64,000 bases of DNA from a virus (lineage: Duplodnaviria > Caudoviricetes). A model generated the notes under the pieces. It worked only from the letters and a program-made list of their open reading frames with translations, searched no databases and had not been told where the DNA came from. The stretch is taken from the IMG/VR virus record IMGVR_UViG_3300042567_001420; one strand, given 5' to 3'. Shown here piece by piece: positions 47,921 through 53,382 of this stretch. The position numbers and the translations under genes are program-made. Numbering within the stretch: the stretch's first letter is position 1; every line of letters begins with the position of its first letter.

Positions 47921-48348
47921 GCATATTCGTAATTTACGGTATCCAAATTCTTTCTAAATTCTGTCGCACCGTTTTTCAAATGGAATCGTTTGGCCATTTC
48001 AGTAGGTGGGCTTAGTGTAACAAATCTTTTTATACTTGGACGAGTACTTGTTATATGGTCTCTGGCTTTAAAGATAAGTTCGCGACCTGCACCCGGAGTA
48101 TAACTCCATATGGTGTAGAATATAACGGTATCTGGTTCAGCGGGTTTGAAGAAAAGTTCCTCGCAGGTTGTCGGGATGCTGTCCATATAGGCAACACATA
48201 CTACTGCTTGCGGTTTTTCATCTTTGAGGAGTATGAGAACTTCCCTATTTTCGGTGATTCGAAAAGCGACGGGAATCTCAGGGCGGACAGGGTCGTCTTC
48301 GATTACTCGAAGAATCGGATCATCTAAATTTTGTGGTTTATATATCAT
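47917..48348 (-). CDS. Hypothetical protein, weak GNAT-like pattern
   Basis: FYTIWSY..GAGRELI...MAKRFHLKNGA; late promoter upstream. Confidence 0.55.
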   Translation of the reverse strand: MIYKPQNLDDPILRVIEDDPVRPEIPVAFRITENREVLILLKDEKPQAVVCVAYMDSIPTTCEELFFKPAEPDTVIFYTIWSYTPGAGRELIFKARDHITSTRPSIKRFVTLSPPTEMAKRFHLKNGATEFRKNLDTVNYEYA

Positions 48349-48370
48349 AACTAAGTCCCGGTGTCAATTA

Positions 48371-48378
48371 TATTTATA
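48371..48378 (-). promoter_or_regulatory. T4-type late promoter TATAAATA
   Basis: Exact consensus upstream of 47917-48348. Confidence 0.65.
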
Positions 48379-48451
48379 CCGGCCATATAGGGTTATTTAA
48401 CTTTTTCAAACTTTATTTTTGCCGATAAATATAAAAACTATTTTATCTATT

Positions 48452-52051: not shown

Positions 52052-52125
52052 TGGTATCCAGTAGAGGTAACGCTCCTCTGTCTCTGGCTTATCAAGCCAT
52101 TGCTCTACTATTGAGCTAACCGGAT
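52052..52125 (-). tRNA. tRNA-Ile(GAT) with a non-canonical T-loop
   Basis: TGGC-TT-GAT-AA-GCCA; T arm AGAGG-AGCGTTA-CCTCT. Confidence 0.8.
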
Positions 52126-52186
52126 ACAATAATATCATGCGCAAATTTTAAAAGAACTTAGCTTAAATAACGATCTATTTAAACTT

Positions 52187-52215
52187 ATTATAACATCTTT
52201 TAGTATCCTTGTCAA
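52187..52215 (-). promoter_or_regulatory. sigma70-type early promoter at the head of the tRNA array
   Basis: TTGACA-N17-TATAAT. Confidence 0.85.
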
Positions 52216-52240
52216 ATGTAAGGGTACTAAAGCATACTAC

Positions 52241-52278
52241 AAAAGAAAAACCCTCGGACTGTAGAAGTGCCGAGGGTT
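52241..52278 (-). terminator. Intrinsic terminator (candidate attenuator)
   Basis: AACCCTCGG-CACTTCTACAGT-CCGAGGGTT followed by TTTCTTTT. Confidence 0.85.
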
Positions 52279-52307
52279 CTAAGATAAACTTGTATGAAAT
52301 TTAAATT

Positions 52308-52415
52308 CTAACCCTGAAGCACACTCCATGAATTTTTGTCTGCAACGCGCTCTGACGTTCCAATATAAGAAGTCGGTTCTTGATGCTGACAGAAAAGGTT
52401 AAATTTATTGTTCAT
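52308..52415 (-). CDS. 35-aa candidate leader peptide containing all 20 amino acids (not in the ORF track)
   Basis: MNNKFNLFCQHQEPTSYIGTSERVADKNSWSVLQG*; ATG 5 nt after TATAAATA; stop 30 nt before the terminator. Confidence 0.65.
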   Translation of the reverse strand: MNNKFNLFCQHQEPTSYIGTSERVADKNSWSVLQG

Positions 52416-52420
52416 AAAAA

Positions 52421-52428
52421 TATTTATA
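52421..52428 (-). promoter_or_regulatory. T4-type late promoter TATAAATA giving a probable leaderless transcript
   Basis: TATAAATA-TTTTT-ATG places the expected +1 on or next to the A of ATG. Confidence 0.7.
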
Positions 52429-52462
52429 CATCTCGGCACCGTCTTACTGGTGCTTTTAAAAA

Positions 52463-52876
52463 TTAAATTGGCGCGTCTTCCAACTCAGCCAACTGTTTCA
52501 ATTCTTCAAGTTCCAAGTCATCCTCGACAACTTTTGCCTTGACTACTTTAGGTGCTGCTACTTTCGCAGGAGCAACTGTCTTTGCCTTTACAGGTGCTGC
52601 TTTAGCTTTTGCCTTAACTGGCTTGCTAATAACTGTACCTTGTTTCTTGCCCATTGTCTCGATGATGAGACCAGACCATTGTTCAAAGACACCGCCTGTA
52701 TCAAGAAGATACTGACATGCTTCGGACTTTGTCATGCCTCTTGGCAACTCAATCAACTCCAAAGGAGAGTGACCACCTTTAGACAAGAGTTTGTATCGAG
52801 ATACCATGTCATTGGCAAAACGAACTTTAGTGATACCGTACTGTGTAGAAACGCCGGCTACTGTGAATGTACTCAT
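52463..52876 (-). CDS. Hypothetical protein with a Lys/Ala/Pro-rich tail
   Basis: MSTFTVAGVS...KVRFAND; early promoter upstream. Confidence 0.75.
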   Translation of the reverse strand: MSTFTVAGVSTQYGITKVRFANDMVSRYKLLSKGGHSPLELIELPRGMTKSEACQYLLDTGGVFEQWSGLIIETMGKKQGTVISKPVKAKAKAAPVKAKTVAPAKVAAPKVVKAKVVEDDLELEELKQLAELEDAPI

Positions 52877-53340: not shown

Positions 53341-53369
53341 ATTATAACAGAAAAAAGAACCCGAGTCAA
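53341..53369 (-). promoter_or_regulatory. sigma70-type early promoter
   Basis: TTGACT-N17-TATAAT. Confidence 0.75.
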
Positions 53370-53382
53370 ATGCTCGGGTTCT
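53351..53382 (-). terminator. Intrinsic terminator
   Basis: AGAACCCGAG-CATTTGA-CTCGGGTTCT followed by TTTTT. Confidence 0.8.

Follow-up and report, generated by a model that had tools for sequence, protein, structure and literature searches.

Can a short open reading frame (ORF) that contains every one of the 20 amino acids, and that stands between a phage late promoter and a transfer RNA (tRNA) array, couple translation to the transcription of tRNA genes? The question is raised by a small module in a 64,000-nucleotide (nt) stretch of DNA (IMG/VR record IMGVR_UViG_3300042567_001420; Duplodnaviria; Caudoviricetes), the whole of which is referred to here as the window. All elements lie on the minus strand, with the module itself at 52428-52241, and run in the order late promoter, leader ORF, intrinsic terminator, sigma70 promoter and tRNA array. 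Based on a comparison of relatives and on RNA folding, we give roughly an even chance to the reading that the module is a ribosome-dependent attenuator of the leader-peptide type, which would gate late transcription into the tRNA array.

Organization of the leader module

Analysis of the sequence bore out the layout given in a preliminary description of the locus, namely a late promoter 5 nt before an ATG, a 35-codon ORF in which all 20 amino acids are represented by 29 different codons, a strong intrinsic terminator about 30 nt past the stop codon, a tRNA array about 115 nt downstream and, overall, the geometry of an attenuator, in which an antiterminator lies over the end of the leader ORF ahead of the terminator and the array (Table 1). 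The promoter motif TATAAATA is separated from the ATG at 52415 by TTTTT, and the translation of the ORF agrees with the amino-acid and codon counts. From the stop codon, 27 nt lead to the terminator stem and 29 nt to the AACCCT in its 5' arm. The caveat that the sigma70 promoter downstream of the terminator would drive early tRNA transcription, and so bypass the switch, also stands.

Thirteen copies of TATAAATA occur in the window, seven of which sit 18-34 nt 5' of the ATG of a long ORF, against 3.4% of positions that are eligible; we therefore regard TATAAATA as a real late-promoter motif. By the T4 late promoter rule, the transcription start (+1) is predicted at or beside the A of the leader ATG. 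No Shine-Dalgarno sequence was found for the leader ORF in the window, and the ORF is probably leaderless.

Conservation of the module in two clades of phages

Relatives were gathered through the gene immediately upstream, which encodes 137 amino acids and is kept in 27 IMG/VR loci at 41-85% identity, and through a DNA pattern taken from the ORF end, which was used with IMG/VR and metagenomes. The module is kept in two clades of T4-like phages from lake metagenomes, in 17 distinct versions. In clade A, to which the window belongs (6 modules, 7 peptides), the leader has 35 codons and its ATG lies 5-6 nt past TATAAATA, with no Shine-Dalgarno sequence. In clade B (11 modules), the leader has 33 codons, and TATAAATA is followed by ~12 nt, AGGAG and the ATG, the AGGAG being at the optimal distance of 7-8 nt before the ATG. 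The leaderless transcript of the preliminary description would thus apply to clade A, where the ATG is at the predicted +1, but not to clade B with its canonical Shine-Dalgarno sequence. Peptides of the two clades are ~40% identical, mostly within a C-terminal N-x-W-S-V-L-(Q/E)-G.

The order late promoter, ORF, terminator and tRNA array was found in every version, with the module directly heading the array, and a sigma70 promoter precedes the array in most relatives. Among clade B contigs the sequence 5' of TATAAATA differs, so the conserved unit begins at the late promoter. One clade B locus (L077, positions 361-650 on the minus strand, equal to L032) is missing both the sigma70 promoter and the first tRNAs. 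Its tRNA-Asp starts 78 nt past the ORF stop and ~20 nt past the U-run, and no promoter lies between the U-run and five tRNA genes, which are therefore reachable only by terminator read-through.

No third clade was found by a profile search of 1.8 billion proteins or by a pattern scan of metagenomes. The profile search returned clade B forms only, one of which is read through the TAG and the other a decayed copy of 45 amino acids. The first is a public gene call in the protein library (P0001) with a 64-amino-acid product; apart from it, no sign of stop-codon reassignment was seen in these phages. The source of the window is itself a distant T4-like myovirus with UvsX-like and DnaB-like genes and a DNA polymerase that shares no more than 52% identity with cyanomyovirus polymerases. 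A DNA search with the module and the neighbouring gene gave no match among 50,697 phage records, and the DNA runs that contain the stretch are lake and freshwater metagenomes.

Distribution of variation within the module

By manual count on the alignments of each clade, variation within the module peaks in the middle of the ORF (~24% of clade A sites and ~12% of clade B sites), and nonsynonymous and synonymous variant codons occur there in ratios of 10:2 and 5:1, compared with a neutral expectation of ~3:1. The lowest variation (3-8% of sites, manual count) runs from about codon 24 to the terminator stem and takes in the final 11 codons as well as the non-coding spacer. Within clades, hardly any change is seen even at synonymous positions of these codons or at non-coding bases. 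Because the last 11 codons and the spacer hardly vary while the middle behaves about neutrally, the constraint acts on the RNA. These patterns show that the middle of the peptide is drifting approximately neutrally, without selection at the protein level, and that the 3' half of the module (regions 2-4, defined below) is under selection at the nucleotide level. Despite the drift of the peptide the ORF is open in every version, and one RNA contig carries an in-frame deletion of 3 nt. An arrest peptide was considered as the cause of the conserved C-terminus and is disfavoured, since the conserved synonymous sites and spacer point to constraint at the RNA level.

A separate observation concerns a 12-nt stretch, AAAAU(U/C)CAUGGA, at 52321-52340 (minus strand) and at the same place in L021, which is invariant in both clades and unpaired in all predicted folds. 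It includes GGAG, which resembles a Shine-Dalgarno sequence, and in clade B also the palindrome CCAUGG. The switch model leaves this stretch unexplained.

Mutually exclusive helices predicted in the late transcript

Four regions were distinguished in the late transcript of ~175 nt, consisting of the start codon and the first 8-9 codons (region 1), the last codons, the stop codon and the beginning of the spacer (region 2), the 5' arm and loop of the terminator (region 3) and the terminator 3' arm (region 4). The helices 1:2, 2:3 and 3:4 are mutually exclusive, which is the topology of the trp attenuator.

The dominant structure, which the preliminary description missed, is a long-range 5'-3' helix that competes with the antiterminator. 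In both clades, and through unrelated sequences, the start of the ORF pairs with sequence at and beyond the stop codon. The clade B helix joins the Shine-Dalgarno sequence, the AUG and codons 1-9 to the last codons and the entire spacer, including a perfect stretch of 15 base pairs (bp), at -29 to -39 kcal/mol (z score -6 to -11; 0 of 300 shuffles as good by RNAduplex). This helix explains the invariance of the MFCML segment and the spacer, and the full clade B RNA, 185 nt long, has a folding energy of -74 kcal/mol. The clade A helix forms between AGGGUUAGAAUUUAAAUUUCAU and the AUG with codons 1-8, at -12 to -16.5 kcal/mol (z -2.1 to -4.9), the versions other than that of the window lying at -15 to -16.5 kcal/mol (z -2.8 to -4.9). 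RNAalifold, applied to a MAFFT alignment of both clades, returned the terminator and one internal hairpin, in which 3 pairs have changes in both partners, and nothing more; since the strands of the long-range helix do not stand in homologous columns in the two clades, this method is unable to display it.

The alternative hairpin proposed in the preliminary description was also recovered. Pairing of AGGGTT (52315-52310) with AACCCT (52278-52273) closes an inner hairpin to give 15 bp at -10.8 kcal/mol (z -2.7), a result equalled by 6 of 200 shuffles. This antiterminator reaches as far as the codons for W-S-V, which find their partner in the terminator loop (UGGAGUG/CACUCCA in most of clade A, UGCUA/UAGCA in clade B). 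With the terminator loop included, the duplex of the window reaches -17.2 kcal/mol and is the minimum free energy (MFE) structure of a transcript that ends just before the 3' arm. The clade B antiterminator is built from other bases around a different inner helix (-20.9 kcal/mol, z -3.8). An antiterminator is thus possible in both clades, at -10.8 to -20.9 kcal/mol, with terminator-loop segments that differ and are each complementary to the conserved ORF end. When the alignment was read against the folds, six of the seven within-clade variable sites of the antiterminator region fell at unpaired positions.

The terminator is made up of an 11-bp stem, an inner 3-bp helix and a U-run. Its stem, AACCCUCG/CGAGGGUU, is kept in both clades and its loop differs; the spacer from stop codon to stem measures 27-31 nt across versions. 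Tested against the Rfam covariance models at E-values up to 1, nothing within 52130-52460 matched apart from tRNAs, and 6S RNA, T-box and other Rfam families were rejected for want of a match.

Table 1. Positions of the module elements and of the first features downstream in the window.
Feature	Coordinates	Strand	Basis or remark
T4-type late promoter motif TATAAATA	52421..52428	minus	Same in 17/17 module versions, both flanks variable
Leader ORF, 35 codons plus TAG (52310-52308)	52308..52415	minus	Translation; open in all versions of both clades
Region 1, 5' strand of the long-range helix (AUG and codons 1-8)	52392..52415	minus	Full-length MFE fold; RNAduplex against region 2
Region 2, pairs with region 1 or region 3	52294..52328	minus	Folds; nearly invariant within clades
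Antiterminator (2:3)	52262..52328	minus	UGGAGUGUGCU..AGGGUU with AACCCUCGGCACUUCUA (terminator 5' arm and loop); encloses local hairpin 52307-52281
Intrinsic terminator (3:4), stem and U-run	52241..52280	minus	-19.1 kcal/mol, z -5.0
Sigma70 promoter TTGACA-17-TATAAT with TG	52187..52215	minus	12/12 consensus match; between terminator and tRNA array
tRNA-Ile (GAT), first array gene	52055..52125	minus	Rfam tRNA model, 53.8 bits; starts 115 nt past the U-run

Predicted response to ribosome position

The effect of a ribosome was modeled by folding a transcript that ends just before the terminator 3' arm under a mask of 29 nt. Clade B behaved in these folds as a clean switch with three states. Its region 3 was predicted to be free without a ribosome (paired 0.08), to be bound to the ORF end while the A site was at any of codons 1-8 (1.00; in L021, 0.98 for codon 9) and to be free again once the A site had reached codon 11 (0.08). 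In clade A at equilibrium, the antiterminator was the default (0.79) until the A site reached about codon 29. The preliminary description had supposed that a stall at any codon would give read-through. That picture is reproduced only by equilibrium folding of clade A; with the long-range helix taken into account, read-through is predicted for a ribosome on about the first 9-12 codons only. During step-wise folding, the long-range helix is the minimum-energy fold of both clades once region 2 emerges. Clade B keeps 1:2 throughout, and clade A keeps it until the terminator loop is out, whereupon the antiterminator wins by 2-4 kcal/mol. In these models, the two clades probably share a three-state logic kinetically.

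The proposed attenuator would work as follows. On naked RNA, helix 1:2 would form as soon as region 2 is made, after which 3:4 would form and transcription would stop. A ribosome at the last codons or at the stop codon would cover region 2, and transcription would stop in this case as well. A terminating ribosome can itself block a terminator within a spacing of ~27 nt (PMC4824070), and the spacer of 27-31 nt is at or beyond that limit, so a ribosome at the stop should allow termination. An initiated ribosome that has not yet left region 1 by the time the polymerase arrives at region 3 would block 1:2, permitting 2:3 to form and late transcription to pass into the tRNA genes. Slow decoding would then lead to more late tRNA synthesis and would thereby feed back on translation capacity.

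Amino-acid content of the leader peptide

The probability that 35 residues include all 20 kinds was 0.0018 for random codons of the window's composition, 0.0004 for the amino-acid composition of the proteome and 0.0002 when segments of 35 residues were taken from real proteins of the window. The window contains 93 ATG-initiated ORFs of 30-40 amino acids, so that ~0.1-0.2 ORFs with all 20 kinds are expected per window; the content is rare, but insufficient alone in a scan of many windows.

A comparison among relatives, as the preliminary description had advised, upheld the complementarity between ORF end and terminator in both clades alongside a varying peptide. For amino-acid completeness, the outcome was divided between the clades. 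All seven clade A peptides have 20 kinds, and in one of them (L006) the substitutions P14T and I18N are restricted to sequence that also carries P12 and I13. In clade B, just 4 of 11 peptides have 20 kinds and the other 7 are without one or two of A, D, H and I (range 18-20 kinds), through independent losses. By manual count, ~45% of the amino-acid-changing events in clade B are losses of a kind, which matches the neutral expectation, and a decayed leader copy in L080 has 17 kinds. Completeness can be no more than a soft trait, or else one confined to clade A, and is not consistently conserved. A strict pan-amino-acid sensor, in which selection would keep at least one codon per amino acid, at least in clade A, and a shortage of any charged tRNA would delay the ribosome and let late transcription enter the array, is accordingly graded apart from the attenuator reading as a whole, and we consider it unlikely. 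With its mixed composition, the leader would be better fitted to a general sensor than to one for a single amino acid, and completeness is not required for this.

As for the peptides themselves, tblastn searches with the leader peptide gave chance matches only. They are hydrophilic, with grand average of hydropathy (GRAVY) values of -0.78 and -0.23, and contain no hydrophobic segment, the highest mean over a 15-residue window being 0.88.

Weighing of the attenuator reading and its alternatives

Several findings weigh against an attenuator. The leader has no run or enrichment of regulatory codons, its commonest residues being N and S with 5 each of 35. The 1:2 helix of the window is the weakest of all (-12.0 kcal/mol, z -2.1, 13 of 300 shuffles as good), shuffling of the terminator loop alone gave p values of 0.04-0.09 per clade and hence moderate support for the antiterminator, and the two clades differ in their predicted ribosome-free behavior at equilibrium. 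The support for the structures comes entirely from in silico work on two clades. In clade A, leaderless initiation depends on a predicted start site, and a +1 one base further downstream would remove the AUG. In most versions a consensus sigma70 promoter follows directly after the terminator, so the array is not dependent on read-through. The module is also dispensable: one relative (L020) is without it, and another (L080, 1980-2196; equally L081, 1025-1241) has only a decayed clade B leader without TATAAATA or terminator, in which an altered C-terminus gives a 45-amino-acid ORF whose stop codon lies 3 nt before tRNA-Arg(TCT). Finally, the terminator may simply end transcripts of the upstream gene; there are RNA contigs that start in this gene and continue into the ORF.

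Metatranscriptome contigs overlap the module in 7 of 8 lake or 'marine' runs, at low depth, with DNA carry-over possible and with ends, strand and read-through ratio not derivable from them. One contig stops at 52239, beside the last bases of the U-run, another (52171-52386) spans the terminator and several extend 5' of the late promoter.

The leading alternative is an ordinary small late gene or messenger RNA (mRNA) with its own terminator, in which the fold-back would serve stability or would limit translation to the co-transcriptional period, the terminator would insulate the array and any read-through would be unregulated. Its ingredients are all present, with a late promoter, a Shine-Dalgarno sequence in clade B, an ORF and a strong terminator at a distance from the stop codon that is in the normal range (PMC4824070). 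Moreover, the long-range helix sequesters the Shine-Dalgarno sequence and the AUG as in mRNAs controlled by fold-back, and the tRNAs are served by the downstream sigma70 promoter. The near-neutral middle of the peptide, however, makes a functional protein unlikely, and the spacer, like the synonymous positions within the last 11 codons, is better kept than the coding middle. A terminator loop that is complementary to the ORF end in each clade is not needed by a small mRNA, and expression of the tRNAs in L032/L077 requires read-through. We consider this explanation possible but doubtful.

Constraint at the nucleotide level and the high stability of the clade B RNA would equally be expected if the module gave rise to a structured late RNA without coding function, ~175-185 nt long and made up of a rod-like closing helix and a terminator, which acts in trans or as a decoy and in which the ORF is incidental. 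Such an RNA could also accommodate the conserved unpaired 12-nt loop. Against it, the ORF is open in 17 of 17 versions despite unrelated 5' halves (a chance of ~10% per clade), the length differences are in frame, the clade B Shine-Dalgarno sequence is properly spaced and the clade A AUG is at the predicted +1; nor did any Rfam family match at E-values up to 1. A non-coding RNA is therefore, in our judgment, improbable.

A purely fortuitous arrangement, with a spurious ORF between a gene and a terminator and such pairings as AU-rich sequence gives anyway, could be entertained from the window alone, where the helices are individually weak (z -2.1 and -2.7) and the expected number of all-20 ORFs of this size is not negligible. 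The comparative data, with conservation from TATAAATA to the U-run in two clades between variable flanks, clade B helices at z -6 to -11 and a pattern of variable sites that does not look random, have largely refuted it already, and we rate it very improbable. A type I toxin-like mRNA in the manner of hok or aapA1, whose toxic peptide would be silenced by the 5'-3' fold-back, shares the small ORF, the pairing over Shine-Dalgarno sequence and start codon and the strong terminator, but the peptides are hydrophilic and not conserved in their middle and no convincing antisense promoter was found (the plus strand has a 9/12 match only), so that its likelihood is close to negligible.

Relation to known systems

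The attenuator proposed here resembles the enterobacterial leader attenuators (trpL, hisL, leuL, thrL, pheL and the multivalent ilvGMEDA) in having a short leader ORF before an intrinsic terminator, four regions that form exclusive 1:2, 2:3 and 3:4 helices, and a stop codon at region 2. In the trp attenuator, the energies are approximately -11 for 1:2 and 2:3 and -20 for 3:4. Those of clade A are similar (-12 to -16 for 1:2, -11 to -19 for 2:3 and -19 kcal/mol for 3:4). The phage module differs in that it has no tandem regulatory codons and includes 18-20 kinds of amino acid in 33-35 codons. Its start codon, together with the Shine-Dalgarno sequence in clade B, is in region 1, so that 1:2 closes the ribosome-binding site, and the whole ORF is contained within the 1:2 loop; a conserved long-range helix that buries the start codon is unusual for an attenuator leader. 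It differs further in its phage late promoter, in the presence of tRNA genes rather than biosynthetic genes downstream and in a second promoter that bypasses the switch.

For broad sensing, the closest functional analogue is the upstream ORF (uORF) attenuator of whiB7/wblC in Actinobacteria. There, stalled translation of the uORF leads to antitermination, and the system is switched on when any of many amino acids, tRNAs or tRNA synthetases is depleted (PMC10274678). The response is set by the uORF coding sequence, the peptide varies between species and many translation stresses are sensed. The whiB7/wblC attenuator differs in controlling a host stress regulon, in its alanine-enriched uORF and in regulating a transcription factor, and it has no sequence relation to the phage module.

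In pyrBI-type attenuation, and more generally where the spacing of ribosome and polymerase affects intrinsic terminators (PMC4824070), a terminator just after an ORF likewise responds to the position of the leading ribosome. There a nearby ribosome physically blocks the terminator at spacers below ~27 nt, whereas the phage module has a spacer of 27-31 nt, its effect is proposed to run through alternative helices and the sign for a ribosome at the stop codon is opposite. Type I toxin fold-back mRNAs such as hok and aapA1 share the pairing of a 5' translation start region with the 3' end of a small-ORF mRNA; the phage module differs from them in its hydrophilic, unconstrained peptide, in that no antisense partner was seen and in the operon that follows.

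Full-text literature searches found no description of a translation-sensing attenuator before tRNA genes in a phage or a cell. Phage tRNA arrays are common and their regulation is almost unstudied. If the attenuator is real, it would establish a feedback loop within a virus between decoding speed and transcription of tRNA genes, using the topology of the trp attenuator without codon runs specific for one amino acid, and would bear on how phages counter host defences that deplete tRNAs. If even the strict pan-amino-acid version were true, the leader would serve the virus as a sensor for decoding as a whole, responding to starvation, host tRNA cleavage or anticodon nuclease and coupled to a near-complete tRNA set of the phage's own. 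With a length of ~190 nt, the module is small as a test system.

Other features of the locus

The tRNA array comprises 24 genes, tRNA-Ile(GAT) and 23 more found by ARAGORN that reach to 44762. tRNA-Ile(GAT) itself was missed by ARAGORN; it has a T-loop of AGCGTTA where TTCGAAT-like sequences are usual, and the same gene is first in the arrays of relatives. The upstream gene for the 137-amino-acid protein (52463-52876, minus strand) has a repeat tail rich in lysine, alanine and valine, and neither a PHROG comparison nor tblastn among deposited phages gave a match for it. Between this gene and the late promoter is a hairpin (52436-52453, minus strand; GCACC-loop-GGTGC) without a U-run, whose stem is kept in clade A and whose loop is variable (AGTAAGAC, ACTAGTTT, AGTAACAC).

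At 48345-48385 (minus strand), in the tRNA region, a copy of TATAAATA adjoins a TTGACA-type promoter, flanked by the inverted repeat CCGGT...ACCGG, so that late and sigma70 promoters may be stacked there. This second TATAAATA within the array (48378) was considered as the start of another leader and rejected, as it precedes an ordinary gene of 143 amino acids. A strong terminator at 53341-53382 (minus strand), with a 10-bp stem AGAACCCGAG...CTCGGGTTCT and a T-run, overlaps the -35 element TTGACT of a sigma70 promoter that matches the consensus at 11 of 12 positions, the promoter sharing bases with the loop and 3' arm of the terminator. Between 44000 and 56000, the minus (coding) strand has seven sigma70 promoters with a 12/12 consensus match (TTGACA-17-TATAAT) within 12 kb, an unusually high density; four of them have the extended -10 TG and several lie within the tRNA array.

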